Positions 2,086-52,100 are shown, counted from the stretch's first letter. The stretch: 64,000 bases of DNA from Bacteroidales bacterium (GCA_038213375.1 JBBQTB010000001.1:36785-100784), one strand, 5' to 3'. Program-made: numbers and translations. Notes: generated by a model from the letters alone, not told the origin.

Positions 2086-2151
2086 CAAAATTGCGACCCT
2101 AAATTTTAACAATTATTACACAATCATTTAAATAACTTATATAATTTCCAC
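2086..2151 (-). promoter_or_regulatory. Stress-regulon promoter for glgX (tandem ATRTAA boxes plus -7 element)
   Basis: Minus strand reads GTGGAAATT-ATATAA-N15-GTGTAA-N22-CAATTTTG. Confidence 0.75.
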
Positions 2152-2198: not shown

Positions 2199-2264
2199 GT
2201 GGAAATGATATAAATTATTTAAAATCAAGTGTAACATTTTACAATTGATAGCATACCACCTTTG
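2199..2264 (+). promoter_or_regulatory. Stress-regulon promoter for the DUF748 gene
   Basis: GTGGAAATG-ATATAA-N15-GTGTAA-N22-CACCTTTG. Confidence 0.75.
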
Positions 2265-2295: not shown

Positions 2296-4659
2296 ATGAC
2301 AAGATTTTTAAATACAAGGCTTAAAAAAGTTTCTTTTATTGTAATTGGATTCATAATCGTTACAGTAATAGTAGTTATTTTAATGCTGTCACCCATCACA
2401 AAATACTTGATTGAGAAGTATGATGTAAAATATACCGGAAGGCAAATTAAAACCGGTTTGGTTTATATAAATCCATTTACCGGTTATGTTTATCTTGGCA
2501 ATCTTAAAATTTACGAATCAAAAAGTGGACCCGATTCTACACAAAGGGATAGTGTTTTCTTTTCAGCAAAGGGGATAAGTATCAATTTATCGTTAACTAA
2601 ATTGTTCTCAAAAACAATAGAAATATCCGAATTCACATTAGATCAGCCAAATGGAATAATTATTCAAAACAAGAAGGATTTTAATTTTAATGATTTAGTT
2701 AAAAAATTCAGTTCCAAAAACTCAGTCCCGAAACAATCATCTTTTCATGTTAACATTCTTAATATAAAAATTAAAAATGGTGAATTCTATTATCATGAAA
2801 AAGAAATACCTATAAACTATTCTGTAAAAAATGTCAATTTTGAAAGTCCAGGCAAGTATTGGAACGCTGACACCATGGCTGTAAAATTTTCCTTCTTATC
2901 CGGAACGGGCAGCGGTAGTGTCAATGGCAATATTACAGTTGACCTTAAAAATCTTGATTATCAGCTTGCTATTGTCATTCAAAAGTTTGATATGAAAATT
3001 ATTGAACAATACCTCAAAGATTTAGCTAATTATGGTCACTTTAGTGCAAAATTGGATGCAAATATGCAATCAAAAGGTAATTTTAATGATGTAGAACGTG
3101 TTACAAATTCAGGTTTGTTGGAAATTAGCGATTTTCATTTCGGCAAAGATTCAGCTACGGATTATGCTTCGTTTGATAAACTTGCCATAGCCATTAATGA
3201 GCTTAGCCCACGGAAGCATATTTATTTTTACGATTCAATCTCGCTCAGTCATCCACATATAAAATATGAGCTTTATGATTATTTAGATAATTTTCAAAGG
3301 ATGTTTGGAAAAAAAGGAGCCAACATTTCGGCAGTTAAAGACGACCCTGCAAAATTCAATCTTATTCTTAAAATTGCTGATTATATTAAAACAATTGGCA
3401 AGAATTTTTTGAAGAGTGATTTCAAAATTAATCGACTGGCAATTTACAATGGTGTTTTAAAATTTAACGACTTCTCTCTGAATGAAAAATTTTCGATGGA
3501 AGCCAATCCTCTCAATATATTTGCCGATTCCATTGATAAGCATCGTAAACAGGTGGGGATAATGCTTAAATCCGGTATTCAACCATACGGAAATATTATG
3601 ATTGCTCTTAAAATAAATCCAAGAGACAGCAACGATTTCGACATACAATATCGACTTCAAAATTTACCCCTTTCTTTATTTAATCCCTACCTAATAACCT
3701 ATACGTCATTTCCGGTGGACAGGGGTAGCATAGAATTCAATGGTAATTGGAATGTGAGAAATGGAATGATAAAGAGCGATAACCACCTGTTAGTAATAGA
3801 CCCGCGTGTAGGTAGACGGTTAAAAAATAAATTTACAAAATGGATTCCCTTACGCCTTGTTATGCTTTTTGTTCGCGAACGTGGCAATGTTATTGATTAT
3901 CAAATTCCGGTAACCGGAAACTTAAAAGATCCCAAATTTCATTTGCATGATGTAATCTTTCATACGCTGAAAAACATTTTTGTTAAGCCAGTGGCAACGC
4001 CTTACATAGCGCGCGTGAAAACTACAGAAAATGAAATTGAGAAATCCCTCACTTTAAAATGGAAAATAAGACAAGCCACAATGGAGCGCAATCAGGAAAA
4101 GTTTACGAATAAAATGGCGGATTTTCTAAAAAATAACCATGATGCTTCTATTGTTGTTTATCCCATACAGTATGCCGAAAAAGAAAAAGAAAACATCCTG
4201 TTTTTTGAAGCGAAGAAAAAATATTTTTTGGTTTCCAACAAGATACAAACGATAAGTAAAGATGATTCCATAAAGGTGGATAAAATGTCAGTAAAGGATT
4301 CTCTATTTGTGAAGTATCTTAACAAACATCTTAAAGATTCGATGCTTTTTACCATTCAGGAAAAATGCGTTAAATTTATTGGTTCTGGTATTGTGAATGG
4401 TAAATTCAAACAATTAAACGACGAAAGAAAAGCCGCCTTTATTCTTCATTTTAAGAAAAAGGCTGTTGAAAATCGTGTAAAAATTCATACTGCTTTAAAT
4501 ACCATCCCATATAACGGATTTTCGTTTTTTAAAATAGATTACAATGGTGAATTTCCGAAATCCTTAATTAATGCTTATCAGCAAATGAATGAATTAAATA
4601 ATGAGGCTCCCAGAAAAGCGTTTAAAAAGGAGCGAGATAAAAATGAAAAAATTCTCTAA
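2296..4659 (+). CDS. DUF748 domain-containing (AsmA-like) envelope protein
   Basis: 787 aa with an N-terminal membrane anchor, INPFTG, a beta-rich body and an 'IPVTGNLKDPKF' motif typical of DUF748. Confidence 0.75.
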   Translation: MTRFLNTRLKKVSFIVIGFIIVTVIVVILMLSPITKYLIEKYDVKYTGRQIKTGLVYINPFTGYVYLGNLKIYESKSGPDSTQRDSVFFSAKGISINLSLTKLFSKTIEISEFTLDQPNGIIIQNKKDFNFNDLVKKFSSKNSVPKQSSFHVNILNIKIKNGEFYYHEKEIPINYSVKNVNFESPGKYWNADTMAVKFSFLSGTGSGSVNGNITVDLKNLDYQLAIVIQKFDMKIIEQYLKDLANYGHFSAKLDANMQSKGNFNDVERVTNSGLLEISDFHFGKDSATDYASFDKLAIAINELSPRKHIYFYDSISLSHPHIKYELYDYLDNFQRMFGKKGANISAVKDDPAKFNLILKIADYIKTIGKNFLKSDFKINRLAIYNGVLKFNDFSLNEKFSMEANPLNIFADSIDKHRKQVGIMLKSGIQPYGNIMIALKINPRDSNDFDIQYRLQNLPLSLFNPYLITYTSFPVDRGSIEFNGNWNVRNGMIKSDNHLLVIDPRVGRRLKNKFTKWIPLRLVMLFVRERGNVIDYQIPVTGNLKDPKFHLHDVIFHTLKNIFVKPVATPYIARVKTTENEIEKSLTLKWKIRQATMERNQEKFTNKMADFLKNNHDASIVVYPIQYAEKEKENILFFEAKKKYFLVSNKIQTISKDDSIKVDKMSVKDSLFVKYLNKHLKDSMLFTIQEKCVKFIGSGIVNGKFKQLNDERKAAFILHFKKKAVENRVKIHTALNTIPYNGFSFFKIDYNGEFPKSLINAYQQMNELNNEAPRKAFKKERDKNEKIL

Positions 4660-4859: not shown

Positions 4860-6647
4860 TTACGCCGGAAGAAAAACGGTAAAAGTAGCACCAATGCCGG
4901 GTTTACCATTTGCAGTAATATACCCATTGTGGTTTTCAACAATTTTTTTGCAAATTGATAGTCCGATGCCTGAACCAGGGTATTCTGTTTTATGAGGCAA
5001 CCGGTGAAACAGAATAAAAATGTCTTCGGCATATTGTTGGTCAAAACCCAATCCGTTATCCGTTATCGAAATTTTGAAATATATTTTATTATTATCTTTC
5101 TTAACAATCGGATAATCTTTGGCTGTAATTTTTATGCACTCAATATTTATTATCGGAAAAATATCTGGGTTGCAATATTTTAACGAATTGCCAATTAAGT
5201 TTGCAAATAATTGCTGAATTTGAAATGGAATCACTTCCAGAAAAGGCAACTGAGTAAATTGTATAACAGCATTTTTCTCTTCAATAGTGTGAGCTAATTC
5301 TTGTTTCACGTTTTCAAGTAAAAGATTACAATCGGTTTTCGCAAAAACCTTGTCGGTTTTATTGGTATGCGAAAATAAGAGCAAGTCGTCTATGAGTTTT
5401 CGCATGCGAATTGCAGATGCTATAATTTTTTCAAAATATTCTTTACCAGTTTCCGACAGGGTGAATGCTTCTTTTTCAGAAATACGCGAAATGAATGTCT
5501 GTATTTTTCGTAATGGTTCCTGTAAATCGTGACTTGCTACACGGTTAAAGGATTCTAATTCCTTAATAATTTGTTCTAATTCCTGATTTTTTTCTTCTAA
5601 TGCTTTAGTATTTAAATTGTATTCCGTAACATCTTTTATAACTCCAATATAAATTTTATTTTTTTTATTGAATGAAAGATATTTACCTAAGGATTTGAAA
5701 TAACGCAATTCTCCATCTTTGCGGATGATCCTGTATAAGCGAGGATATGTTTTATTAATTTTTACGTCTTCTGCTCCATTGGCTACAATACTCCTATCAT
5801 CAGGGTGTACAAATTTTAAATAATTTTCAATTGAAGGTTCAAACGATTGTGGTTCGTAACCTAATAAACGGTATAAGTTATCAGAATACAATAACTTATT
5901 GGTTTTTAAATCCCATTGAGAGATGCAAAATTCGCCAATAATTTCTGCATGTTTCATTGATTCTATCGATATCATTAATTGCTCATTTGATTGTGTTAAC
6001 ATAAATAAATCCGTGGTAATTTTGACATAAGAAATGATGAAAATCGCCAATGTAAAAAGCAAAAGCATTAACGTAAAAAGCGGGGTAAATGAAATTTCGT
6101 GTTTGTATTTTTTTTGATTTTGGTTAAAATGTTCCGTTTCCAAATCATTCATTTTTGAGATGAAGGAGCGTATCGAGTCCATTACCATTTTGCCTTTCAT
6201 CAAATTTTTATCTAACATCTTAGTATTTATAACTGGATTAGAATTTATTTCTAACGTTTTCTCCAATAGAGCATATCTATAATTGATTAAATGAAATAAT
6301 GTATCTAACTGCTTTTGTTGCTGTATATTTTCATTTAATAGAGTTTTTAAACCGTTGAATACCTGGTTTACCTTTTCGCGACCCGAATTATAAGGTTGAA
6401 GAAATAAAGTATCTTTTGAAATAATAAAGCCGCGTTGGCCTGTTTCTGCATCTTTAAGATAGGAGAGTAGTTTCTCTAAATGAATCTGAATTTTATATGA
6501 ATGAACTAATAAATCAGATGATTCACTAAGAGAAATAGTGTGCTTGTAAGATACACTTGAAATAAAAACTAATACAAACAATGCTATCACAAAAATACTC
6601 TTAAGTAAAAAAGGACTTTTGAAAATGAACATGCCTTTCATAAACAC
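4860..6647 (-). CDS. Sensor histidine kinase, CHASE3-PAS-HisKA-HATPase
   Basis: DAETGQRGF (CHASE3), VHPDD (PAS), SHDLQEPLRKI H-box, N box NLIGNSLKY, DNGLGF and GSGIGL G boxes. Confidence 0.93.
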   Translation of the reverse strand: MFMKGMFIFKSPFLLKSIFVIALFVLVFISSVSYKHTISLSESSDLLVHSYKIQIHLEKLLSYLKDAETGQRGFIISKDTLFLQPYNSGREKVNQVFNGLKTLLNENIQQQKQLDTLFHLINYRYALLEKTLEINSNPVINTKMLDKNLMKGKMVMDSIRSFISKMNDLETEHFNQNQKKYKHEISFTPLFTLMLLLFTLAIFIISYVKITTDLFMLTQSNEQLMISIESMKHAEIIGEFCISQWDLKTNKLLYSDNLYRLLGYEPQSFEPSIENYLKFVHPDDRSIVANGAEDVKINKTYPRLYRIIRKDGELRYFKSLGKYLSFNKKNKIYIGVIKDVTEYNLNTKALEEKNQELEQIIKELESFNRVASHDLQEPLRKIQTFISRISEKEAFTLSETGKEYFEKIIASAIRMRKLIDDLLLFSHTNKTDKVFAKTDCNLLLENVKQELAHTIEEKNAVIQFTQLPFLEVIPFQIQQLFANLIGNSLKYCNPDIFPIINIECIKITAKDYPIVKKDNNKIYFKISITDNGLGFDQQYAEDIFILFHRLPHKTEYPGSGIGLSICKKIVENHNGYITANGKPGIGATFTVFLPA

Positions 6648-6656
6648 GTTATTGAA

Positions 6657-7103
6657 TTAACGACTAAGTATAAATGTATCTTTGTTGAGACCAGATAAAT
6701 GGTATTGCCAATTAATAGCAACGACTTCTTGTAATATTTTTTTTAGAGCGCTAAAATCGCTTGGTTTTTTTATATAAACATTAGCCCCTTTAACAAACGT
6801 TTCCTCAATATCTTCTTCAGAAGCGGACGTCGAATAAATAGCAACCGGAATTTCCTTTAAAAAGTCGTTTCGTTTGATATCCAATAAACAATCCATACCA
6901 TTTTTACGAGGCATGTTTAGGTCAAGAAAAATAATATGAGGCAGAATCACGCCTTGTTTCGTAAGGTGTTCCATTAATTCTACCCCATCACATAAAGTTT
7001 TAACAATAGTCTTGATTTTTATTTCTTCAAAAGCTTCTTTAAAAAAAATTCTGTCATCCTCATCGTCATCGGCAATTAAAATTTGCATTATTCCGTTTTG
7101 CAT
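6657..7103 (-). CDS. Single-domain response regulator (receiver only)
   Basis: ILIADDD, FLDLNMP, STS and YIKKP motifs; no output domain. Confidence 0.93.
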   Translation of the reverse strand: MQNGIMQILIADDDEDDRIFFKEAFEEIKIKTIVKTLCDGVELMEHLTKQGVILPHIIFLDLNMPRKNGMDCLLDIKRNDFLKEIPVAIYSTSASEEDIEETFVKGANVYIKKPSDFSALKKILQEVVAINWQYHLSGLNKDTFILSR

Positions 7104-7124
7104 TGGTTTTATATATGTGGTTGG

Positions 7125-7685
7125 TTATTTCACGTCATCGGGTTTTCTTCTTTTATTAATAATTCGTTGGAAGGCAGTAGGAGTGAGCCCCGTTACATTC
7201 TTAAACTGATTGCTAAAATGGGCGAGGCTACTATAGTTTAATTTATCGGCAATTTCAGTAATGGTTAATTCATTAGAAATGATTAACTTTTTCGCACGCT
7301 CGGTCTTTTGAAGTGCTATGAAATTTTCGACTGTAGTATATGTAATATCTGAAAATAATTTAGAGATATAACCATACTTATAGTTAAGTTTATCAGCGAT
7401 ATACAAAGATATTTTTGAAATGGGTAATTTATCTTCCATATAAACCATTTCTGTTATCACATCTTTTATTTTTTGAACCAAAATACTTTTGTGACTTTCA
7501 ACAATTTCAATACCATAACTATTTAAGGTGATATTCAGTTGCTGTAAATTTTCGTTGGAAAAAGTTTCTTGTATTTCAACTTCGCCCAAAGACGATAGGG
7601 AATAGGTAAGGTTATATTTATCTAACTGTTCCTGAACTATTTTTTTACAAAGTGTGTGTGTGTCATATTTAAGGTAAAGCTTCAT
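7125..7685 (-). CDS. AraC-family transcriptional regulator
   Basis: C-terminal TITEIADKLNYSSLAHFSNQFKNVTGLTPTAF double-HTH signature and a short Cys-containing N-terminal domain. Confidence 0.92.
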   Translation of the reverse strand: MKLYLKYDTHTLCKKIVQEQLDKYNLTYSLSSLGEVEIQETFSNENLQQLNITLNSYGIEIVESHKSILVQKIKDVITEMVYMEDKLPISKISLYIADKLNYKYGYISKLFSDITYTTVENFIALQKTERAKKLIISNELTITEIADKLNYSSLAHFSNQFKNVTGLTPTAFQRIINKRRKPDDVK

Positions 7686-7855
7686 TGATTAATACTATTT
7701 AGAAATACTTTTATAAGCTATAAACTTATTGTAGTTTGTTATAACACTATAATTATATGGTAAACAAAGATATTTTTATTTTGTTCAAGGCAATTATTGC
7801 CAATACATCCAAAGTGCGTTAATTCTTAAGATAGGACAACACTAAAATCAAAAAA

Positions 7856-7904
7856 AATGAGCCACAAATGCACAAATAATTTATTTGTGCATTTGTGGCT
7901 CATT
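7856..7904. repeat. Perfect 24-bp inverted repeat (REP-like palindrome)
   Basis: AATGAGCCACAAATGCACAAATAA-T-TTATTTGTGCATTTGTGGCTCATT. Confidence 0.9.
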
Positions 7905-7980
7905 AACAATATGTTTATAAATCAGGTCTTAGTGTATTTGGTGACTTGTAAATTTTTATAATAAGCTCTCAAATTCCCAA

Positions 7981-8157
7981 TTACCCATTAATAATTGCGC
8001 CACAATTAATATGAATGAATTGACCCGTAATGCAACTGGTATCATTACTTACTATAAATAAACTTTTACCACCCTTTCCGGATTTTAAAGTATTCTCTTT
8101 AAATTCGTGCATCACTTTCTCAATTTTCTTCTAAGCTTTATCTGAATATTTTGACAT
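7981..8157 (-). pseudogene. Deletion scar: 5' part of a DUF6496-like gene fused to the 3' end of an SDR oxidoreductase
   Basis: Manual translation MSKYSDKA*KKIEKVMHEFKENTLKSGKGGK-SLFIVSNDTSCITGQFIHINCGAIING*; in-frame TAG at 8131-8133. Confidence 0.7.
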
Positions 8158-8205
8158 ATTGTAATTTTTATTACCAATTTATTTAAAAATTAACGCTATC
8201 CCGTA

Positions 8206-8373
8206 TCACTTTTTAAAAATTGTAAATCCAAGAATACCCGTTATAACCACCAAAACTAGAAAAGTGAAGAATATTATTTTAGCGATAGCAGCGGCTCCTT
8301 CAGCTATACCCGTAAAACCAAAGATTGCAGCTATTATAGCAATTACAAAGAAAATTACAGTCCATTTTAACAT
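8206..8373 (-). CDS. DUF1328 / UPF0391 small membrane protein (55 aa)
   Basis: Manual translation [36 protein letters not shown]...; below the ORF-track cutoff. Confidence 0.9.
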
Positions 8374-8425: not shown

Positions 8426-8491
8426 CAAAGTTAAACAAGAGCTGAAGAAATCGTATTACATTATTCCAAATTAAATTTATATAATTACCAT
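8426..8491 (-). promoter_or_regulatory. Stress-regulon promoter for the DUF1328 unit
   Basis: Minus strand reads ATGGTAATT-ATATAA-N15-ATGTAA-N22-TAACTTTG. Confidence 0.75.
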
Positions 8492-8740: not shown

Positions 8741-9202
8741 TTATGAAGTAGTTACAAGTGTATCGCGCATTGATTTAACTAAGTTGTGATCAGCTTTAAT
8801 TAACTCATATTGCGAGGTAATGAGCATTTTTAGTGGAGTATTCAAATCTTCAACATCATCTTTTAATGCTTTTTCATACGTTTTAAGCGCCTGATCTTCA
8901 CCAAATTCGCATAAGTTTAGAATGGTTTTACGATCTTTGCCAGTAAGGGCTGTTTTGACATCCATCCATACACGGAAAAATTTTCCAGTTGTTTTTGTAC
9001 TTTCCGTAGGTTTACCCCCTAATTTAATTATTTCACTTTCTAATTCGTTTTTGCATTTATTACTGGTTCTGGCAAATTGTGCAAAGAGTGTTTTCAACTC
9101 ATGTTCATCAGTTTCGCTGGAGGCTGTTACATAACCTTCAATTCTGTCGTTGTTTATTTCGACAAGTGTGTTTAACACATCAATTTTTTCTTCGTTTTTC
9201 AT
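8741..9202 (-). CDS. PA2169-family four-helix-bundle (DUF2383, ferritin-like) protein
   Basis: LNTLVEINNDRIEGY, GKFFRVWMDVK and CEFGEDQAL motifs. Confidence 0.88.
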   Translation of the reverse strand: MKNEEKIDVLNTLVEINNDRIEGYVTASSETDEHELKTLFAQFARTSNKCKNELESEIIKLGGKPTESTKTTGKFFRVWMDVKTALTGKDRKTILNLCEFGEDQALKTYEKALKDDVEDLNTPLKMLITSQYELIKADHNLVKSMRDTLVTTS

Positions 9203-9278: not shown

Positions 9279-9344
9279 TAAAGATATGCCTGCTTTGAAA
9301 TAAAATCATTATATATAAAACAGAAAATATTACATCATTTCCAT
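9279..9344 (-). promoter_or_regulatory. Stress-regulon promoter for the PA2169-family gene
   Basis: Minus strand reads ATGGAAATG-ATGTAA-N15-ATATAA-N22-TATCTTTA. Confidence 0.72.
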
Positions 9345-9382: not shown

Positions 9383-9836
9383 TCAATTAATTTCTTTGTT
9401 TATTTGAACAGAATATTCATTGGAAATTATTTTTTTACCTTGTACAATGTCATATATCTTAGTGAATTCGGCTCCAAAATTTAATATTATGGCAGAAAAA
9501 TACACCCAAGCCAGAATGAGAATAATCGAATCAACAGCTCCATAAACAGAAACCATACTATTACTTTTAAGATAAAGACCAATAGCAAATTTTCCAATCA
9601 TAAAGAAGGCAGTGAAGGCTGAACCAATAATGCCATCGCGAAGAGCGAAAGAAAATATAAAAAGGTATTTTGATGAAGTAAGTTAGTCAAACGTTTGCCA
9701 AGGATGTCAAGTAATGAATTTAAGATTTAGTTAGTGACTACATTACTGCGCCCAATTTGATGGCATTATCATCTATAAATCCATCAAAAGTCTCTTTAAA
9801 TAGATGATATCCAGTCTTTTTTAATGTTATTTTCAT
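9383..9836 (-). pseudogene. YihY/BrkB-family membrane protein, internally deleted
   Basis: N-terminal piece MKITLKKTGYHLFKETFDGFIDDNAIKLGAVM* from 9836 and C-terminal piece ...IGKFAIGLYL...WVYFSAIILNFGAEFTK; most of the central helices are missing. Confidence 0.8.
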
Positions 9837-9973: not shown

Positions 9974-10621
9974 CTATAATGAAACGCCTATAGTGGCCTG
10001 ATACCAAACATTTTTGTAACGAGGATTTGAAGATGTCCCATCTCCATTATTATTCGATATATCCCAACCGGCTCTTAAATTAAGTACAAAATGGCTTAGG
10101 TTAAACTGCACACCACCCAGGAAACATAAAATGTTTTTGCGAATGTTACTGTTATCAAAATCACTCTCTTGTTGTCCGCTCAGAATGGAATTCGAAAATA
10201 CATTCTTTTGCTTCATTAAATAAGAATATTGCGGGCCGGCCTGTAAGGTAAAAAATTCACTTGGTTTCAAGGAGAATAAAATAGGTATGTCTAAATAATT
10301 GGTCGTATGGGTAAATTCATAATTACTACCAAAAACGGAACCTTTTGCCATGAAGCCTTTTTGGGAAAATAATAATTCAGGTTGAATTCCAAAATATTTG
10401 CCGATAGGTATAGATAAAAATGCTCCTGCGGCCAAACCAATCTTACTACCTGCCTTATATTCCTGACCTTTTGTGTCATACACGTTCGATAAATTTACTC
10501 CTGCTTTCAACCCAAACTGAAGCTTCTCGCGATTGTCCAAAATATTATCTTGCGCGTTACTTTTATTTGCAATTAAGGCAACTACTGCAATCATTAAAAT
10601 TATTTTTTTCATGATTATCAT
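9974..10621 (-). CDS. Outer-membrane beta-barrel (PorT-like porin family) protein
   Basis: Signal peptide, FGLKAGVNLSN, IQPELLFSQKG, YLDIP and AGPQYSYL. Confidence 0.85.
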   Translation of the reverse strand: MIIMKKIILMIAVVALIANKSNAQDNILDNREKLQFGLKAGVNLSNVYDTKGQEYKAGSKIGLAAGAFLSIPIGKYFGIQPELLFSQKGFMAKGSVFGSNYEFTHTTNYLDIPILFSLKPSEFFTLQAGPQYSYLMKQKNVFSNSILSGQQESDFDNSNIRKNILCFLGGVQFNLSHFVLNLRAGWDISNNNGDGTSSNPRYKNVWYQATIGVSL

Positions 10622-10713: not shown

Positions 10714-10902
10714 TTATTTAAGCCCTGCAATCATCTTATCAAATTCATCCTTAGATGTTCCCAGCTTTGTTTGAATTTTTCCAAGCATCTCATCTTCTTT
10801 ACCTTCTTCATACATAAGGTCATTATCAGTTAAAACTGCAAATCTCTGTTTGAGTTTACCTTTTAACTCATTCCAGTTACCTTTTACTATTGATGTGTTC
10901 AT
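10714..10902 (-). CDS. CsbD-family general stress protein
   Basis: KGNWNELKGKLKQRFAVLTDNDL...GKIQTKLG. Confidence 0.92.
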   Translation of the reverse strand: MNTSIVKGNWNELKGKLKQRFAVLTDNDLMYEEGKEDEMLGKIQTKLGTSKDEFDKMIAGLK

Positions 10903-10943: not shown

Positions 10944-11417
10944 TTATACTTTGCCTTTAATTTTGATAATGCTATTTTTATTTTTGGATGAAAAAGCTTT
11001 TAAATCGAAACCCAGTTCATCCATATTTTGTTTAAACTCTTTTTTGAATGATTCCCATTTTAGCATGTCATTATCCATTTTATAATTTGCCATTTTCTTT
11101 TTAAGATCTTTGTTTCTGTTTACTAACACACTTATCTCTTTATTGAATGCAGCATCCTCCTTTTCATTTACTTTCACATATTTTGTTTTCAACTCTGCCA
11201 TTTTTTTTTCATTTTTGATAATTTTTTTTTCAAAGTCAATTTTAAATTGATGGTATTCCGATAAATATTCATCTGGATTTTCCATGGGTTGTTTTGCATC
11301 AGCTAACTCTTTGTGCAAATTTTCTTTGGATTTAAGAATATCTTTTTGCTGTCCGTAGGAGGTGGTAACTCCCATCAAAATTGCAATTATAGTTGTTGTT
11401 ATAATGTTTTTTTTCAT
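10944..11417 (-). CDS. Secreted coiled-coil hypothetical protein
   Basis: Signal peptide and a KWESFKKEF-type helical repeat. Confidence 0.7.
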   Translation of the reverse strand: MKKNIITTTIIAILMGVTTSYGQQKDILKSKENLHKELADAKQPMENPDEYLSEYHQFKIDFEKKIIKNEKKMAELKTKYVKVNEKEDAAFNKEISVLVNRNKDLKKKMANYKMDNDMLKWESFKKEFKQNMDELGFDLKAFSSKNKNSIIKIKGKV

Positions 11418-11453: not shown

Positions 11454-11519
11454 CAAAGTTGCAAATCATTATGTCGATAACTATTACATGAATTTCGAAT
11501 TATTTTACATCATTTCCAC
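11454..11519 (-). promoter_or_regulatory. Stress-regulon promoter for the hypothetical-CsbD-porin unit
   Basis: Minus strand reads GTGGAAATG-ATGTAA-N15-ATGTAA-N22-CAACTTTG. Confidence 0.78.
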
Positions 11520-13386: not shown

Positions 13387-13587
13387 TTAAAGGTATGAGT
13401 AGGTTGCTATCCCACATTCTCTGGGTGGATAGGATGTAATAAACAGAATTTCTGTATTTTCATCCAAATGACCTTGAAAATTATTTTGTTTGTTTTTTAA
13501 ATTTCTTCCAGAACTTATTTGGGCTTCAAAAAGTGGTTCTTCTGATAGTGTTCCATATGAAAAATTAGAAACGGTTTTATTTTTCAT
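13387..13587 (-). pseudogene. Truncated GT4-type glycosyltransferase (N-terminus only)
   Basis: Stops just after EILFITSYPPRECGIATYS, the opening motif of much longer GT4-like enzymes. Confidence 0.75.
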
Positions 13588-14734: not shown

Positions 14735-15127
14735 TTAATTCACTGATGCTTTCTTTTTGCGTAAAACATTTTGAAAAACAAATTGTCCAATTGATTTTAT
14801 TGTTTCTGGATGTTGGGCAACTATTCGTGTTATTCCAAATTGCAAAAGAGAACCAAAAATATTTCTAAATATATTGCCTGATCCTCCAACCACTATTTTT
14901 TTAGAAAGATACCCTGTTCCCATTCCCATGGTAGTACCCAGTAGATTATTCATTAAATTGGGTGTTGAAGCAACATTATGAAAAGTGCTCTTTATCAGGT
15001 TTATCGGTTTAATACTCTCAACAGCAAGCAAAAATTGTTCTTTTAATAGTTGCTCTTCATGCGCTTGCTCAACTTCTAAAAGTTGAATGGCATTTTTAAG
15101 ATCAGAAGTGGAGGATATTTTATACAT
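14735..15127 (-). CDS. Hypothetical protein of the YtxH-associated cluster
   Basis: 130-aa ORF co-oriented with and tightly packed against its neighbours. Confidence 0.7.
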   Translation of the reverse strand: MYKISSTSDLKNAIQLLEVEQAHEEQLLKEQFLLAVESIKPINLIKSTFHNVASTPNLMNNLLGTTMGMGTGYLSKKIVVGGSGNIFRNIFGSLLQFGITRIVAQHPETIKSIGQFVFQNVLRKKKASVN

Positions 15128-16189: not shown

Positions 16190-16765
16190 TTACATTTTTT
16201 CGCATTTCTTTTGACACGTAATTGCACGATCAAGATGTTTCCGCAAGATCGGTAGTGTTTCCGCTGCCCAGGTTCTAATATCTATATCATTCGCGTCCTT
16301 GGATGCTTTTTCAAATGTTGCAATCGCATCTTTATGTCCGCTTACCATCATATCACAGTATTCCTTATCAAATTTTTTTCCTGTTTTCTTACTCAAATCC
16401 TTATAAACATTCTTTACCTTATCGGTAGGTGATGTTGGAATGGTTATTAGTTTCTTCTTTGCCAAAGCAATTAAGTTTTTCATTGATTCACTGTGAGATT
16501 TTTCTATCATTATGCCCATTTCTTTAACATCAGTCATCTGACTGTTTTGCTGAGCTAATTGTCCTAAAAGAGATTCTTTCCAATTAATCTCTGCAGCATC
16601 CACAAGAAATTGGGCATCTTGTTTTTGATTATCTGTATTATCAAATTTGGCATCGTTGTGTTCCTCAGCTACAGCTTTAGTGTCAGCCGGTTTTTGGGAA
16701 CTATTACATGACCATATGCTAAAAATGGCTGCAATTAAAATAACACTTAAAGTTTTATTTTTCAT
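16190..16765 (-). CDS. DUF4142 domain lipoprotein
   Basis: Lipobox WSC, FDKEYCDMMVSGH and TLPILRKHL. Confidence 0.88.
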   Translation of the reverse strand: MKNKTLSVILIAAIFSIWSCNSSQKPADTKAVAEEHNDAKFDNTDNQKQDAQFLVDAAEINWKESLLGQLAQQNSQMTDVKEMGIMIEKSHSESMKNLIALAKKKLITIPTSPTDKVKNVYKDLSKKTGKKFDKEYCDMMVSGHKDAIATFEKASKDANDIDIRTWAAETLPILRKHLDRAITCQKKCEKM

Positions 16766-16794: not shown

Positions 16795-16861
16795 CAAATT
16801 TATGCTTGCTTTTATCTCAAAGCATTACATCATATACATAAAAATGTTACATGATTCCCAT
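16795..16861 (-). promoter_or_regulatory. Stress-regulon promoter for the DUF4142-lmo0937-YtxH operon
   Basis: Minus strand reads ATGGGAATC-ATGTAA-N16-ATGTAA-N22-TAAATTTG. Confidence 0.78.
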
Positions 16862-24409: not shown

Positions 24410-24757
24410 AATAATTCTGATTTTTATTGATCGAAAGAATGATTTTAGTGAATTGTGCAAACGAATGCGCAGTTCACTAATCATGTTCAAAACCCTACCT
24501 GATGCTTTGATAAGCAAAAAAATATAAAATAATTCCAAAAGATCTTAAAATATTTGGATTTTATATTTATTCATACTTAATTGATTTAATGTATATTGCA
24601 AAATAAATGGCTAAGTTCAAGTTAAAAACAAACAATGTATTTGTAAAAACCTTGCTATTATTGGCCTATCAGAGTGTTTATATTAAAAATAATTGTATTT
24701 TTACATAGGTCTTATCACAAACCTTCTAAATTATTAAAAACTAAAAAACTTAATTTT

Positions 24758-25030
24758 ATGAACAAAGCAGAATTAGTTGATGCAATTGCAGCAGAAAGCG
24801 GATTGACAAAAGTAGATTCAAAAAAAGCTCTTGATGCCTTTATTAAAGTTTCTTCAGACACCTTGAAAAAAGGGGAAAGTGTTGTTCTTATTGGCTTCGC
24901 CACTTTTTCAGTTACACAACGCAGTGCCAGAACAGGTAGAAATCCTCAAACAGGCAAACCTCTTCAAATTAAAGCTAAAAAGGCTGTTAAATTTAAAGCC
25001 GGTTCGGAACTTAGTAAAAGTGTCGAATAA
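24758..25030 (+). CDS. hup: DNA-binding protein HU
   Basis: MNKAELVDAIA...GRNPQTG; likely start at ATG 24758. Confidence 0.95.
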   Translation: MNKAELVDAIAAESGLTKVDSKKALDAFIKVSSDTLKKGESVVLIGFATFSVTQRSARTGRNPQTGKPLQIKAKKAVKFKAGSELSKSVE

Positions 25031-44988: not shown

Positions 44989-45054
44989 GTGGAAATCATG
45001 CAACACTTTGCGGTTGAGATGTAACATTTTTTGATATTAAAGGTACCACCTTTG
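44989..45054 (+). promoter_or_regulatory. Stress-regulon promoter for the lipoprotein gene
   Basis: GTGGAAATC-ATGCAA-N15-ATGTAA-N22-CACCTTTG. Confidence 0.75.
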
Positions 45055-45134
45055 TATTACACGAGACTTTTGCCATTGATATGGTAAATGTTTCAATGAG
45101 AATCTTATATAAATTTAACCCTAAAAAAAACAAA

Positions 45135-45563
45135 ATGAAAGCAATTAAATTGAAATCTATGACAAAAAATATCTTTATAGGTATTTTTGTATCATTAATG
45201 ATGGTTTTTTTCACATCATGTGCCACAAAGATGGTTTTTTTGGATTCACCCGTTGTTCCGGGAGCAAAAGGTAATGTATCGATAAAAAATGACAAAAACA
45301 AAAATTACACTATTCAAATAGAAATCTCATATCTGGCTGAAATCGAAAAACTGCAACCACCTAAGAATACCTATGTTGTTTGGTTGGTTACAAAGCAAGA
45401 ATCAGCGAAAAATATAGGTCGAATTACAAGTTCAAAAAAATTAAAAGCATCATTTAAGACAGTATCTTCAGTTAAACCAACCAAAATATTTATTACGGCC
45501 GAAAATGACGGAAATATTCAATATCCAGGTACAATGGTTGTATTATCCACATCCAAAAATTAA
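45135..45563 (+). CDS. Hypothetical lipoprotein
   Basis: Lipobox FTSC, YVVWL and IFITAE; start chosen at ATG 45135. Confidence 0.75.
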   Translation: MKAIKLKSMTKNIFIGIFVSLMMVFFTSCATKMVFLDSPVVPGAKGNVSIKNDKNKNYTIQIEISYLAEIEKLQPPKNTYVVWLVTKQESAKNIGRITSSKKLKASFKTVSSVKPTKIFITAENDGNIQYPGTMVVLSTSKN

Positions 45564-45713: not shown

Positions 45714-45780
45714 GTGGAAATCATGTAATATTTTTCTATAAATCATATAATAATTTTATATGTCAGCCTCTATAATTTTG
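45714..45780 (+). promoter_or_regulatory. Stress-regulon promoter for the Mn-catalase operon
   Basis: GTGGAAATC-ATGTAA-N16-ATATAA-N22-TAATTTTG. Confidence 0.78.
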
Positions 45781-46170: not shown

Positions 46171-47097
46171 ATGTTCCATCATGTAAAAGAATTACAGTAT
46201 AACGCCCGGGTTTCAAAACCCGATGTGCGCTTTGCAAAACTATTGCTCGAACAATTTGGGGGCGGTAATGGAGAATTGAAAGCCGCGATGCAATATTTTG
46301 TGCAGGCTTTTGGGTGTAAAAAACCATATCCTGACAAGTATGATCTGCTAATGGATATCGCCACGGAAGAATTCAGCCATCTCGAAATTGTTGGCGCTAC
46401 CATTCAAATGCTTTTAACAGGTGTGAATGGCGATTTAAAAAACACAGCAGATGAATCAGATCTCACAAAATTATTGGATGGGAATGCTGCAAAGGAAGAA
46501 TACATTCATCAAGCAATGATTAATCCTCATTTCTTTTTATTAAGTGGCGGTGGCCCAACGGTAACCGATAGTAAAGGAATACCATGGTCTGGGGCTTTTG
46601 TAAATGCAATGGGAGATTTAACTGTTGACCTTCGTTCAAATATTGGCGCTGAATCAAGGGCAAAAATGGTTTACGAAAATTTAATGAAGTTTACCGATGA
46701 TACGTTAGTGAAAGAATCATTGCGTTTTCTTATGACAAGAGAAGTTGCCCACTTTCAGATGTTTCAGGCAGCATTAGAATCTATTCAACCAAATTTTCCT
46801 CCCGGTATTTTGCAAAGCGACCCACGTTACAGTAATTCGTATTTCAATTTATCACGAGGAGAAGACTTTAATGGGCCATGGAATGAAGGTAAAAGCCCTG
46901 AATTTGAGGAAACATGGAGATATATTGAGGATCCCTTAAAACATGTGCTTGAAACAAAAGGTTTGCTTGCAGAGCAAGTAGAAGGCACAAAACGCACGGA
47001 GAAACTCATCCAGAAAAAGAATAAATTATTAAGTGCACAGCGTAAAGCTGAAGTGGACCATGCAACACAACCTCTTAATGGAGTAATGAATTGGTAA
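46171..47097 (+). CDS. Manganese catalase family protein
   Basis: EQFGG..GEL.AAMQY, DIATEEFSHLE and REVAH. Confidence 0.93.
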   Translation: MFHHVKELQYNARVSKPDVRFAKLLLEQFGGGNGELKAAMQYFVQAFGCKKPYPDKYDLLMDIATEEFSHLEIVGATIQMLLTGVNGDLKNTADESDLTKLLDGNAAKEEYIHQAMINPHFFLLSGGGPTVTDSKGIPWSGAFVNAMGDLTVDLRSNIGAESRAKMVYENLMKFTDDTLVKESLRFLMTREVAHFQMFQAALESIQPNFPPGILQSDPRYSNSYFNLSRGEDFNGPWNEGKSPEFEETWRYIEDPLKHVLETKGLLAEQVEGTKRTEKLIQKKNKLLSAQRKAEVDHATQPLNGVMNW

Positions 47098-47147: not shown

Positions 47148-47711
47148 ATGAAAACAAATGGTGATTCGCGCAAAAGCGCACAGACAAGAGATATTCAGGA
47201 TAACGGAGTTCAATCATCGCAATTGATGCAATTGTTCGAAGACGAGTTGAAGGATATTTATTGGGCGGAAAAAGCACTCACGAAAGCAATTCCTAAAATG
47301 ATTAAAAATGCAACTGCTCCTGAATTGAAAAAAGCATTGGAAAATCATCTGGAACAAACGCATGAACAAGTTAACCGTGTAGAAGAAGTATTTGAATTGC
47401 TTGACAAAAAGGCTACCGCAAAGGAATGCAAAGCTATGGCCGGATTAATTAAAGAAGGCCAGGAAATTATGGAAGAATGTGAAGAGGGGGTCATGTGTGA
47501 TGCCGGAATTATTTCCGCGGGTCAAAAAATCGAGCATTATGAAATTGCCTCCTATGGAACACTTCGCCAATTTGCCGATACTCTTGGCCGATCAGATATA
47601 GCAAAATTGCTCCAGCAAACGCTTTCTGAAGAAAAAGCAGCCGATGAAAAATTATCAGAAATAGCAATGAGAGCCATCAATATTAAAGCGTCAGAAAAAG
47701 TTGAGAGTTGA
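47148..47711 (+). CDS. yciF: YciE/YciF ferritin-like protein (DUF892)
   Basis: LKDIYWAE, CKAMAGLIKEG, QKIEHYEIASYG and TL.EEK.AD. Confidence 0.9.
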   Translation: MKTNGDSRKSAQTRDIQDNGVQSSQLMQLFEDELKDIYWAEKALTKAIPKMIKNATAPELKKALENHLEQTHEQVNRVEEVFELLDKKATAKECKAMAGLIKEGQEIMEECEEGVMCDAGIISAGQKIEHYEIASYGTLRQFADTLGRSDIAKLLQQTLSEEKAADEKLSEIAMRAINIKASEKVES

Positions 47712-47782: not shown

Positions 47783-48265
47783 ATGACTCAAAAAATCAGA
47801 TCAAAATGGTTCGAGACTTTTGCTTCCAAAGCTACAAAAGCAACAGGAAGTAATATTGCCTTTGTAATTGCATGTTTTGTAATTATGGTATGGATTTTAA
47901 CAGGACCCATATTTCACTATTCGGATACCTGGCAACTTGTAATTAACACCGGAACAACAATTATAACATTTCTTATGGTTTTTCTTATTCAAAAAACACA
48001 AAATAAAGATGCCATTGCCATACAAATAAAATTAAATGAACTGGTGGCTGCAAATGAAAAGGCAAGTAACCGAATAGTAAGTATAGAGGATTTGGCGGAA
48101 GAAGAACTGGTGCGGCTTAATGAATATTATACCCGGTTGGCAGAGATAACTAAAAAAGAAAAAAATCAGAAAATATCACATTCTATTGAAGACGTTTCAA
48201 TATTGAAGGATGAAAAGAAAAAGTTACAAAAAAAGATAAACAGCATAACGAAAAAAGATACATAG
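47783..48265 (+). CDS. Low-affinity iron permease (Fet4-like) family protein
   Basis: YSDTWQLVINTGTTIITFLMVFLIQ and QIKLNEL. Confidence 0.9.
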   Translation: MTQKIRSKWFETFASKATKATGSNIAFVIACFVIMVWILTGPIFHYSDTWQLVINTGTTIITFLMVFLIQKTQNKDAIAIQIKLNELVAANEKASNRIVSIEDLAEEELVRLNEYYTRLAEITKKEKNQKISHSIEDVSILKDEKKKLQKKINSITKKDT

Positions 48266-49101: not shown

Positions 49102-52100
49102 ATGTTAATGATACCATTTAGTTTTTCAAAATCTTTGAATATGAATAAAATACTAGATAAATTATCTCAGATGTCCGGAGCACTCAAAACCAAGTTTGGG
49201 ATTACTGCGTATTCTATGATGGCGAAGCGGTTGGGGTTGGTGATGGTGTTGTTGGTTAGTTACAATTATTTTGTACAAGCGGCAAACAAAACCTTTTTAG
49301 GCTCTGGTATTTTTAGCGATGCCACAAAATGGAATTTAGGAGTTCTTCCTGTGGCTGGCGATGTCCTTTGGATAGACGGTACATGTACCTTTGATAATGC
49401 TGCTAACGGCGCATTAGTTTATGGGAGCATCGATGTTGGACATACAATAGCAGGTACGCTTAACTGGTCGGGTGGGAGCAATACATTGCAGGTAACAGGT
49501 ATATCTTCTACAAAAGCAGGAAGTACTATTGATATGACAAATGGTGGGACATTGCAGTTGACAGGTGCTTGGGCAATTGCCAACCAAACTTTCACGGCCG
49601 GAAGCGGTACTATAATTTATAATGCAGCCGCAGGTGGTCAGACAGTGATCGCGCTTACATACAACACCTTAACTTTAGGCAATACCAGTGGTACCCAGAC
49701 GGCAAGCGGAGCAATAATAACAACAACTCTGAATAACAATACAAACCCTGCCAATATATTTAATATGGGTACTTTCGCTTTAACAGGCGTCACAACCTTA
49801 AATAATACAGGTACCATCAGGACTCAAAACATTTCAGCTACTCCGTTACCTACCGGACTTACGTGGGGCGGTACGGTAAAATATGATGCAGTTATAGGCA
49901 CTCAAACGTTGATGGCAGGCACTTACGCCACCTTAACCATGGGCAATACAAGTGGTACCCAAACGGCAAGCGGAGCAATAGTCGCAACAACCCTGAACAA
50001 TAACACCAATGCTGCCGATGTACTCAACATGGGTACTTTTGCATTAACCGGGGTAACCACGGCAAATAATACCGGCACCATCCGCACCCAAAACATTTCA
50101 GCTACTCCTTTACCCAACGGACTTATCTGGGGTGGCACGATTAAGTATGATGCGCTCACAGGTGCTCAAACGGCAATGGCAGGCACTTACGCCACCTTAA
50201 CCATGGGCAATACCAGTGGTACCCAAACGGCAAGCGGAGCAATAATAACAACAACTCTGAATAACAATACAAACCCTGCCGATATATTCAATATGGGTAC
50301 TTTTGTATTAACCGGGGTAACCACTGCAAATAATACCGGCACCATCCGCACACAAAATATTTCAGTTACTCCCTTACCCACCGGACTTATCTGGGGTGGC
50401 ACGGTAGCATACGATGCAGCTACAGGCACTCAAACGTTGATGGCAGGCACTTACGCCACCTTAACTTTGGGCAATACAAGTGGCACAAATACGGCTGGTG
50501 GAGATATAATTGTAGGAGGAACATTAACACTTGCTGCGGGTACATTTACAATTGGGGCCAATACTCTGACATTAAACGGCTCAACAATTGCAGGGACTCC
50601 TGCCAATTTATTAACTTCTGTATCTTCCAATTTGGTTTTTGGTGGTTCAACTGCTGGCGTTTTAATTCCCACAAGTATATTAGCATTGAATAATTTATCA
50701 ATTTCTAATACCGGTATTGTTGCCCTGCAAAGTTCACCTACCATAAATGGCACTTTCGATCCTCAGGGAGCCGGTTTATCAATCGGAGCAAATACATTGA
50801 CATTAAACGGACAGTTAAATTGTGGTAAACTTACAGGTAGCGCAACTTCGAATATTATCATTAATGGTGCCGGAACAGCTGCTTTATCCGCCGTTACTTT
50901 AGGAAACCTTACTATTAACAGGGCCTCCGGTGTTGCCTTATGCGGCAATGTAACCGCAAATGGCACCCTTACCCTCACTTCGGGAGTTTTTCAACTTGGA
51001 ACCTTTGATTTAACCCTTGCCAACACCACCGCCATTGCTGGTTCACCGTTTAGTGTTACAAATATGGTCGAAACCAATGGCGCCGGGCATTTAATCCGTT
51101 CCGCGAATGCTACAAATATACTATTTAACCTTACCTACCCCGTAGGAAGTAGCGGGTATTACAGTCCGTTGATTGTAAGCGGATTAACCAGTGTGGCGGG
51201 TGGAGCAAAAACTTTTAAGGTAAGAGCCGTACCTACCAACCCGGGCGTGTTAACCAACGCTATCAACAGATACTGGGAATTATCTCAAACCGCAATGAAC
51301 TTAACTGGAATAAACCTTTCATTCACGTATAATGCTGGAGAAGTGACAGGCGATCCGCTTTTATTCCTGCCTTATACCAATACTTCGGGTACGTGGTTGG
51401 TTGCCACCGGGCCTTCCCTTGCAGGTGCCAACCCGGCTACATCAACAGGTAGCGCTTCAATTAATGGTAACTGGACTGTAGGTGCGCCAAGTATTTTCTA
51501 CTCGTATCAAACTGGTGACTGGAACCAGGCAACTACCTGGACGTTCGACCCAGGTGGTACTACAGGTCCCGGTTCTTTGGTTCCCGGCATGAACGATGCA
51601 GTGGTAATCCTCAGCGGACGCACCGTAACCCTTTCAACCGATGTTGCTACTCAATTCCTCGATATAACTATTAATAACGGCGGTACTCTCGATCAATCTA
51701 CAAGGCAGTTCAGCAGCGGACTGATAGCATTAAGGGGCGATGGGACATTAAAACTTTCATCTTCTAACTTCCCAAATGTTGTCCCTGCTGTCAACAATAC
51801 TTTTGTTACTGCCGATGGTGGTACCACCGAGTACAATGCCGGAGGTAACATGTCTGCCACCCAGTTAACTTATTATCACCTTAACATAAAAACTGCTGGC
51901 ACTGTTATTCAGGGAAAGAGTCTTACCCTAAACGGCGATCTGCATGTAAAACAAGGTACGTTCCAAATTAATGACGGAACAGCCCAAAGGTTGAAACTTT
52001 TTGTTTCGGGAAATGTCACAGTTGACGCACCTGGTTCTATTACAGTTGGTACAGGTAATACAATAAATGGGGCAGATGTGCCAACTACCAATAACAATGG

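Follow-up and report, generated by a model that had tools for sequence, protein, structure and literature searches.

The DNA examined here is a stretch of 64,000 nucleotides from a Bacteroidales bacterium (GCA_038213375.1, JBBQTB010000001.1:36785-100784), referred to below as the window, and the system in question is an operon on its minus strand (positions 4860 to 7685) that encodes a short AraC-family regulator, a receiver-only response regulator, and a sensor histidine kinase. On the basis of comparative analysis and structure prediction, we see about an even chance that the kinase signals through the receiver to the AraC protein, which would bind tandem ATRTAA boxes and activate a stress-like regulon. 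This chain had been put forward in an earlier reading of the sequence, hereafter the original prediction. Each of its links has now gained comparative or modeling support, whereas the boxes proved to belong to a whole protein family and not to this AraC clade as its own. The features on which the argument depends are listed in Table 1.

Organization of the operon

Open reading frame (ORF) calls confirm the arrangement first described, namely three co-oriented genes separated by 21 base pairs (bp) between AraC and receiver (7104-7124) and by 9 bp between receiver and kinase (6648-6656). Note that the 9-bp gap presumes the GTG start of the kinase; in-frame ATG codons lying 6 and 15 nucleotides inside would lengthen it to 15 and 24 bp, respectively.

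The DNA-binding region of the AraC protein is recognized by two Pfam families, HTH_18 over residues 96-174 (E 1.7e-15, 57.5 bits versus a cutoff of 33.6) and HTH_AraC (42.9 bits versus a cutoff of 26.6). Residues 1-95 match no Pfam family. In the receiver, Response_reg covers residues 8-124 (E 4.4e-19, 69.1 bits); it is the only Pfam domain found there, and hence the protein has no output domain, as the original prediction had stated. The active site, as read from the sequence, is formed by the acidic pocket at D12-D14, the phospho-acceptor D61, T92, Y110, and K113. With its pocket, aspartate, threonine, and lysine in place the protein is CheY-like, and its phosphorylation is predicted. The receiver and the AraC domain are encoded by two ORFs with a stop codon and 21 bp between them, and the same split is observed in 27 of 29 related loci.

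The kinase is composed, in order, of a transmembrane segment, CHASE3 (residues 45-179, 95 bits), a second transmembrane segment, PAS_3 (253-334), HisKA (365-426, 42.5 bits), and HATPase_c (476-594, 66.6 bits), all domains being assigned with Pfam. The hydrophobic segments that flank CHASE3 lie at approximately residues 11-33 and 185-210. The catalytic boxes are represented by H373 (H box) and by GNSLKY at 486, DNGLGF at 530, and GSGIGL at 558 (N/G boxes). Judged by these features, the protein is a HisKA-type sensor with CHASE3 positioned between two membrane segments. None of the three proteins has an NCBIfam family above the curated cutoff.

The AraC protein had also been regarded as the sole DNA-binding regulator of the surrounding gene cluster. 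This stands to the extent that Pfam, applied to 32 window ORFs, found no other DNA-binding domain between 1 and 17.6 kb; a gene for an HU-type protein is located at 24674-25030. It is weakened by three cluster ORFs to which no Pfam family could be assigned (10944-11417, 13387-13587, and 14735-15127), so that one of these may encode a novel regulator. The promoter of the operon, by contrast with those of the stress genes, was said to lack the boxes, and this is borne out: none of the eight box-pair sites in the window lies upstream of its -7 box, TATCTTTG. A terminator-like hairpin upstream of that promoter is predicted to insulate the operon against upstream transcription. Inside the operon, terminator-like sites have stems of 5 bp only (6954-6939 and 6441-6427).

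Table 1. Genes, promoter elements, and box-pair sites of the window, together with the five AraC family members of the source genome. GG- and GT-type sites are defined in the text.
Feature	Position	Strand	Remarks
Short AraC-family regulator	7125..7685	minus	186 aa, ATG start; ORF call and HTH_18
Receiver-only response regulator	6657..7103	minus	148 aa, ATG start; ORF call and Response_reg
Sensor histidine kinase	4860..6647	minus	595 aa, GTG start; ORF call and Pfam
-7 promoter box of the operon, TATCTTTG	7765..7772	minus	Bacteroidota type; box search
Terminator-like hairpin	7857..7903	minus	20-bp stem, then T run; upstream of the operon promoter
GG-type pair and -7 box	2086..2149	minus	before CBM48/alpha-amylase (isoamylase-like) gene 1-2049
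GG-type pair and -7 box	2201..2264	plus	before AsmA/DUF748 gene 2296-4659; faces away from 2086-2149
GG-type pair and -7 box	8426..8489	minus	before small membrane ORF 8206-8373
GG-type pair and -7 box	9279..9342	minus	before DUF2383 gene 8741-9202
GG-type pair and -7 box	11454..11517	minus	before 10944-11417 (157-aa ORF, no family), CsbD (10714-10902), and outer-membrane beta-barrel protein (9974-10621)
GG-type pair and -7 box	16795..16859	minus	before DUF4142 (16190-16765)
GG-type pair and -7 box	44991..45054	plus	before 160-aa ORF 45081-45563 (no family)
GG-type pair and -7 box	45716..45780	plus	before small ORFs, Mn catalase (46171-47097), DUF892 (47148-47711), and iron permease (47783-48265)
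Family member: window protein	C1:43912-44469		this operon; 8 GG-type sites
Family member: AraC-2	C1:168957-169511 (L076)		different receiver-only gene next; 6 GT-type sites within 144-178 kb of C1
Family member: AraC-3	C37:12036-12581 (L077)		after kinase and CheB-CheR-PAS protein; 3 GT-type sites nearby
Family member: CxxC member	C23 (L079)		upstream of HMA-bearing P-type ATPase
Family member: fifth member	C52 (L078)		beside Na/H exchanger

Conservation of the operon and of the receiver tail

In all 19 loci, drawn from several orders, in which the AraC protein is at least 45% identical to that of the window, the receiver gene is positioned directly downstream of the AraC gene. Fifteen of these loci also have an adjacent gene for a homologous kinase; one locus ends at a contig edge, and three (L015-L017) have none. 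Homologs of the stress genes are found nearby in 9 of the 19. A second set of 10 loci was taken from 9 of the 11 ortholog-bearing genomes in an even sample of 400 genomes of the class, with G138 and G172 left out. Here the receiver is adjacent in 8 loci and within 9 kb in all 10, and the kinase lies beside the receiver in 9.

The ortholog cut of 239 bits that underlies this second set was chosen after a gap between 239.5 and 218.1 bits had been seen, the best paralog in the source genome scoring 216.2 bits. With it, AraC orthologs are present in 11 of the 400 genomes, and all 11 hold a receiver of at least 185 bits. The AraC and receiver tallies over the 400 genomes include the unpublished genomes G094 and G180, on which no specific claim rests. 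In a twelfth genome, G291, which gave no AraC hit in the profile scan, a receiver of 223.6 bits, the kinase, and DUF4142 are intact beside an AraC gene with a single frameshift (L095:7041-7620), which is either a pseudogene or an assembly error.

The C-terminal tail of the receiver, residues 127-148 (NWQYHLSGLNKDTFILSR), extends beyond the receiver fold and is present in all 29 receivers. N131, Q133, Y134, S137, and N140 are invariant in the 19 orthologs, and the signature WQ[YF]HTSGLN is present in each of the 10 sampled loci. Five sister-clade receivers with 52-55% identity (from G001, G296 twice, G282, and G148) are encoded behind kinases of 900-1400 residues, with no AraC gene nearby; their tails have the same length and lack the signature. 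Within these alignments, the WQYHTSGLN tail occurs specifically in receivers linked to an AraC gene.

In L015-L017 (Chryseobacterium by record title) and L091, the active site of the receiver is degenerate through loss of acidic-pocket residues and no kinase gene adjoins, yet all four loci keep the pair and the tail. L017 has N and L091 has S in place of D61, and these proteins look like pseudo-receivers. Since the kinase-less loci retain the AraC-receiver pair, the pair looks like the core unit, with the kinase serving as an input that is dispensable in some lineages. These counts show the trio to be conserved across Bacteroidota; that it works as one signaling module along the proposed chain is a proposition for which we find the scales evenly balanced.

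Models of the AraC protein and of its complex with the receiver

The AlphaFold2 model of the AraC protein has a mean predicted local distance difference test score (pLDDT) of 86.8. Residues 1-62 adopt a β-α-β-β-α-β fold, which is followed by a linker helix (residues 65-82) and the DNA-binding domain (residues 92-180). Seven helices are counted over residues 65-180. The DNA-binding domain superimposes onto solved AraC domains with Z scores of 12-14 (3oio, 3oou, 3w6v, and 1bl0), the values being 14.0 for 3oio (root-mean-square deviation 2.8, 111 residues aligned) and 12.9 for MarA (1bl0). With a C-terminal domain of approximately 100 residues that contains two helix-turn-helix motifs, the window protein is, by sequence and model, an AraC/XylS-type regulator, for which binding to half-sites is predicted.

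The complex of the AraC protein with the receiver was modeled from paired ortholog alignments together with three controls, structure prediction of this pair having been named as a check in the original prediction. The pair passed, with a score of 0.71 (0.72, 0.71, and 0.70 in the individual runs) versus 0.00 for the best of the three controls. A mark of 0.71 is reached by 116 of 157 solved complexes and by 2 of 215 mismatched pairs, although these counts are rough, own alignments having been used. At least 89% of the contacts are common to the runs, and the partner has a pLDDT of at least 85. The modeled interface is formed by residues 74, 115-117, 122, 125, 129, 132-133, 136, 165-167, and 171-179 of the AraC protein and by residues 29-30, 96-106, and 125-148 of the receiver. 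In this arrangement the α4 face and the tail of the receiver are placed on the back of the DNA-binding domain, at α4 and α7, and not on the N-terminal domain. The clade-specific AraC residues T115, L125, R174, I175, and K178 lie inside the interface. The model supports binding between the two proteins.

The same wiring might operate with the opposite sign, in which case the unphosphorylated receiver would be an anti-activator, and phosphorylation or another cue would free the AraC protein. The modeled contact does extend over both recognition helices at their ends (residues 115-117 and 165-167), in addition to α4 and α7, and the pseudo-receiver lineages that lack an adjacent kinase retain the pair, which argues that the receiver is useful without phosphorylation. 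Most of the contact, however, falls on the face that points away from the DNA in MarA-type complexes, and we consider an inverted sign unlikely.

In VIA-align the N-terminal domain matches two groups of structures about equally well, ACT chains with Z scores of 7.5-8.4 (2qmw, 8.4; 1zpv, 7.9) and HMA chains with Z scores of 6.7-7.3 (1fe0, 7.3; 8rnz, 6.9). When the domain was folded alone, CopZ chains headed the Foldseek list (2qif, E 0.024; 6ff2, E 0.035), and no Foldseek match reached E <= 0.001. Pfam HMA remained below its cutoff in all six N-terminal domains tried, the best of which was that of L043 (E 0.032). The MxCxxC metal motif is absent from the window protein, which reads THTLCKK at this position and keeps only C13 of the CxxC found in its paralogs. 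The domain is therefore a degenerate relative at most, HMA- or ACT-like in our interpretation. That it serves in dimerization is a guess.

Such a fold would allow the AraC protein to sense a signal of its own, for example a ligand or a redox change at C13, and to bind the boxes alone, with the receiver and kinase, although co-transcribed, acting elsewhere or in fine-tuning. In keeping with this are the ACT/HMA-like fold with CopZ at the top of the Foldseek list, the retention of C13 in at least 90% of the family members, and the C..C that 47 of 50 paralog loci show in the ~45 residues read from the N terminus. Furthermore, the two paralog loci that were inspected, L049 and L079, adjoin metal ATPases, and no receiver gene was found among the ORFs seen there. 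Nevertheless, 27 of 29 loci have the receiver gene next to the AraC gene, the tail is specific to AraC-linked receivers, and the complex model passes its controls. An AraC protein that acts on its own signal is thus, in our opinion, quite improbable, and signaling through the receiver is the reading that we retain.

Box pairs and promoters

The first four sites examined lie upstream of four minus-strand stress genes, and all four display the same architecture: GGAAAT-N-ATGTAA, 15-16 nucleotides, ATRTAAT, exactly 21 nucleotides, and a -7 box resembling TAnnTTTG, which we take to be the Bacteroidota consensus. The hexamers repeat with a period of 21-22 bp. A pattern built on the full architecture detects eight sites in the window, all of which fit, versus a mean of 0.0 upon first-order Markov (Markov-1) resampling. 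Over the entire 4.95 Mb of the genome, the flanked architecture occurs 26 times, with 9 sites of the GG type (GGNAAT) and 17 of the GT type (GTGAAT). Eight of the 9 GG-type sites belong to the window, where they flank the operon on either side, and it is this proximity that suggests the assignment of the window boxes to the window AraC protein. Six of the GT-type sites are found around the paralog AraC-2 on C1 and three around AraC-3 on C37.

With two direct repeats approximately 21 bp apart, of which the proximal repeat borders on the upstream promoter element, the layout is that of a class II AraC-type promoter, and activation from it is predicted. An alternative sigma factor was considered as the reader of the boxes and rejected, since a TAnnTTTG -7 box of the housekeeping type is present at the same spacing in all sites.

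Another reader might be found within the AraC family itself. The window boxes could be read mainly by another family member, or by several interchangeably, with the window protein controlling part of them or other targets. The source genome holds five members, the second recognition helix (approximately residues 154-165) is almost alike throughout the family, the strict motif occurs in genomes that lack the clade, and GG- and GT-type sites mix near orthologs elsewhere. On the other hand, 8 of the 9 GG-type sites surround the window gene, and GT-type sites surround two other paralogs. In addition, the alignment reveals that the first recognition helix (approximately residues 104-115) differs between orthologs and paralogs. 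This pattern fits a shared ATGTAA box next to a member-specific flank, a link that we infer. Reading by other members is, by our estimate, rather improbable, and we continue to favor the window AraC protein as the candidate reader.

Distribution of the boxes across genomes

Full-length relatives of the window AraC protein are spread across Bacteroidota, and a profile of the orthologs detects family members at E <= 1e-40 in 167 of the 400 other class genomes. When counted without the flank, the architecture yields 28 sites in 191 kb of ortholog loci (16 of 19 loci), 17 sites in 189 kb of ortholog loci from the class sample (8 of 10), and 22 sites in 560 kb of paralog loci (17 of 50). No site was found in 71 kb of unrelated sequence comprising six loci that, by record title, belong to Vallitalea, Oscillospiraceae, Lachnospiraceae, Eubacteriales, Treponema, and Spirochaetia. 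The expectation from Markov-1 resampling is at most 0.2 sites per locus set. The enrichment over resampling, together with the absence from unrelated loci, indicates that the boxes are real and go with the AraC family. On these sequence grounds, the ATRTAA box is the motif of the Bacteroidota short-AraC family as a whole and not of the window clade alone.

Although the boxes are A+T-rich and lie in an A+T-rich genome, it is highly improbable that they are not activator sites and that RNA polymerase or an unrelated factor reads them upstream of the promoter instead, their nearness to AraC genes being coincidental. The architecture exceeds Markov-1 resampling at least 40-fold in every family-bearing locus set, is missing from the six unrelated loci, and recurs directly beside family members of different clades. 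A direct-repeat period of 21 bp is, moreover, an AraC-type arrangement.

The hexamers do change between lineages. As judged by eye, drifted versions (GTATAA, ATACAA, and CTGTAA) precede homologs of DUF4142, CsbD, the 157-aa ORF, and the outer-membrane protein, and drifted boxes occur beside the operon in L001, L002, L003, L008, L011, L014, L085, L088, and L093. Of these, L008 comes from a culturable organism, Cytophaga aurantiaca DSM 3654. The site at 11454-11517 is also conserved in L001. At L014:4770-4830 (Chitinophagaceae), a GG-type pair with ATGCAA hexamers is located upstream of the AraC gene itself, with no -7 box at the usual distance; by its position, this pair may reflect autoregulation in that lineage.

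A number of observations weigh against the proposed chain. The original prediction had tied the motif to this AraC clade and had named their co-occurrence across genomes as a check, with motif-bearing genomes that lack the clade counting as a refutation; in part, this refutation applies. The strict GG-type pattern is present in 12 of 400 other genomes versus 2 hits for a reversed-pattern control. As a marker of the clade it fails: only 1 of the 11 ortholog genomes carries it (G397, 4 kb from the AraC gene), and the 11 further genomes with the pattern have no ortholog. The co-occurrence thus survives at the level of the family, some member of which is present in 9 of the 12 pattern-bearing genomes, and not at that of the clade, which is present in one. 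In the other 3 genomes, which are 68, 87, and 95% complete, the family is absent at E <= 1e-40. The exact consensus, ATRTAA-N15/16-ATRTAA-N21-23-TANNTTTG, gives 3 sites in five ortholog-bearing genomes, a rarity indicating that the consensus drifts. Exact patterns were dropped as a marker across lineages, and looser architecture patterns with controls were used. Near orthologs elsewhere, GG- and GT-type sites are equal in number (7 versus 7), so the division between them may not map to paralogs beyond this genome, and cross-regulation among its five family members is possible.

The contact between receiver and AraC protein meets objections of its own. The structure 12aw, in which a receiver and an AraC domain are combined in one chain, matches both profiles, and part of the model's pass may thus be memory of the fused arrangement. 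Close cousins of a true partner can also pass the complex scoring. The enrichment of clade-specific residues in the interface (5 of 19 positions versus 8 of 77 other positions of the DNA-binding domain) is not significant (Fisher p = 0.08). Finally, Rcp-type receivers homodimerize via the same face, which would compete with the modeled contact.

Proposed mechanism

In the mechanism that we favor, the CHASE3-PAS kinase would sense an extracytoplasmic or envelope cue and phosphorylate the receiver on D61. The receiver would then dock, through its α4-β5-α5 face and its clade-specific tail (WQYHTSGLN..F), onto the back of the AraC DNA-binding domain at helices α4 and α7 (residues 115-136 and 165-179). 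Two AraC molecules would occupy the two direct-repeat half-sites, approximately GGAAAT-N-ATGTAA, with a period of 21-22 bp. Given that the proximal box ends 21 nucleotides before the sigma-A -7 box, the AraC protein would sit at the position of the -33 element, and it would act as a class II activator together with the housekeeping sigma factor. The targets would be the general-stress-like set on both sides of the operon, which comprises CsbD, YtxH, DUF2383, DUF4142, Mn catalase, DUF892, NDH-2, and AsmA-like genes.

A wider proposal, which we offer tentatively and with some doubt, is that the trio is a master switch of the general stress response in Bacteroidota, a counterpart of SigB, RpoS, or EcfG that dispenses with an alternative sigma factor and relies on a tail-docked receiver acting on a miniature AraC protein. 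The family of this AraC protein would go back to a copper-sensing regulator of HMA descent, from which paralogs diversified that each recognize a distinct flavor of the same tandem ATGTAA box.

If the chain holds, it would supply a named, testable regulator and a cis-element for the stress response of a phylum that is important in soils, waters, and guts. It would also provide an example of a two-component output split between a receiver and a separate AraC protein that are joined by a docking tail. The rule for the family, a short AraC protein combined with a constant spacing between tandem ATGTAA boxes and the -7 box, would aid the annotation of promoters and regulons, including those of copper efflux in Bacteroides.

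Comparison with known systems

Full-text literature searches found no description of this module, although papers in subscription journals could hold one, and we know of no described regulator for the general-stress-type genes of Bacteroidota (CsbD, YtxH, DUF2383, DUF4142, and Mn catalase). By sequence and model, a split receiver-AraC module with a docking tail, lying beside family-wide tandem-box promoters, would be a variant of known two-component and AraC themes.

At araI1-araI2, AraC from E. coli exerts class II activation from direct-repeat half-sites that have a 21-bp period and lie next to the -35 region. The window protein resembles it in its DNA-binding domain with two helix-turn-helix motifs, in the two half-sites at 21-22 bp, and in the abutment of the proximal half-site on the upstream promoter element. 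It differs in its length of only 186 residues, in its ferredoxin-like N-terminal domain where AraC has a cupin domain for arabinose binding and dimerization, in the Bacteroidota -7 promoter, and in its input, which is apparently a separate receiver and not a sugar.

The same two domain types occur in fused receiver-AraC regulators such as those of the YesN type (3lsg) and the Bacteroides hybrid two-component system represented by 12aw. Indeed, the best solved match of the AraC profile is the C-terminal domain of YesN (3lsg, E 2.1e-10). Unlike in those systems, the domains here reside on separate polypeptides, with the AraC protein having an N-terminal domain of its own and the receiver a dedicated tail.

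Among receivers, the best solved sequence matches are Rcp proteins (RcpA, 1k68; Rcp1, 1i3c; and RcpB, 1k66; E 2.4e-19 to 8.7e-13). The closest solved chains, 5te9, 1k68, and 1i3c, are of the Rcp type, and beyond approximately residue 126 the tail has no solved match. The window protein shares with the Rcp receivers the receiver-only form and a short C-terminal extension. The kinase here, however, is of the CHASE3-PAS type and has no phytochrome domain in Pfam, and for this reason the receiver is described as resembling the Rcp type and not assigned to it.

Receivers without an output domain are known to act on transcription factors. In Comamonas, the single-domain receiver FlmD reportedly acts on the MerR-type regulator SoxR. 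In Xanthomonas, according to the accessible part of the text, the receiver-only protein VemR alters the OmpR-type regulator HrpG by contact, and phosphorylation may be needed (PMC9923393). As in these two systems, the receiver described here would modulate a DNA-binding regulator by contact, yet its partner is of the AraC type and neither OmpR- nor MerR-type. A conserved adjacent pair or a docking tail is not described for either system in the portions of text at hand.

The kinase RsbK of Bacillus cereus contains a CHASE3 domain. In the RsbK-RsbY-SigB system of that organism, as set out in the available part of the source, a two-component kinase acts through a receiver on a general-stress regulon with CsbD- and YtxH-type genes (PMC9912610). 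The likeness would be one of logic only, with a kinase feeding a receiver and a stress regulon at the end. As far as that text describes it, the output there proceeds through a PP2C phosphatase, partner-switching, and an alternative sigma factor, whereas here it would proceed through an AraC activator and the housekeeping sigma factor.

Paralogs and neighboring genes

The AraC-2 gene of the source genome G000 forms a pair with a receiver gene at C1:168957-170031 (L076:4976-6031). The receiver in this case shows 23% identity to that of the window and is without the WQYHTSGLN tail. The pair is flanked by GT-type box pairs, which stand before a YunG gene and a glycogen-phosphorylase-like gene. 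In the AraC-3 locus (L077:2293-7597), a HisKA kinase, a 975-aa CheB-CheR-PAS protein, and a 187-aa ORF without a family precede AraC-3. The GT-type sites of L077, near 1901, 10097, and 16703, precede the kinase gene, a gene for a ferritin-like (Dps-type) protein, and an operon that encodes an iron permease, a hydrolase, UbiA, a type III polyketide synthase, a methyltransferase, and an FAD monooxygenase.

A different setting is observed for the CxxC members: in Bacteroides, Alistipes, and G000 (L079:737-3601), their genes directly precede that of an HMA-bearing P-type ATPase, and a box pair occupies the space in between. In L049 from Bacteroides xylanisolvens, for example, the gene for the CxxC paralog is followed within approximately 60 bp by ATATAA-N15-ATGTAA-N21-TACCTTTG and then by the P-type ATPase. 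The arrangement occurs at L049:5953-8820 and in L040, L047, L050, L052, L028, L029, and L051. A box site lies at most 260 bp downstream of the AraC gene in 11 of the 47 paralog loci with C..C. This context makes the CxxC members candidates for AraC-type sensors of copper or heavy metals.

With respect to the genes that follow the box pairs of the window, the small membrane ORF at 8206-8373 corresponds to NCBIfam PRK13682 (66.9 bits versus a cutoff of 59). DUF4142 is followed by co-oriented genes for YtxH, a holin-X-like protein, a 130-aa ORF, an AI-2E transporter, an ankyrin protein, and NDH-2. On the minus strand at 7980-8160, a frame beginning with MSKYSDKA reaches TAG at codon 9 and continues into a 44-aa ORF, the end of which presumably resembles the tail of a short-chain dehydrogenase. 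These frames look like gene remnants directly downstream of the small membrane ORF and its box pair. The 72-aa ORF at 9383-9601, also on the minus strand, matches only the last 50 of the 259 positions in the BrkB/YihY profile and is probably a truncated gene within the stress cluster; a full-length copy is located at L076:1261-2172. Toward the far end of the window, an ORF of 3464 residues is encoded on the plus strand at 49102-59496, where the G+C content is 0.41-0.46 versus approximately 0.31-0.39 over the first 48 kb.

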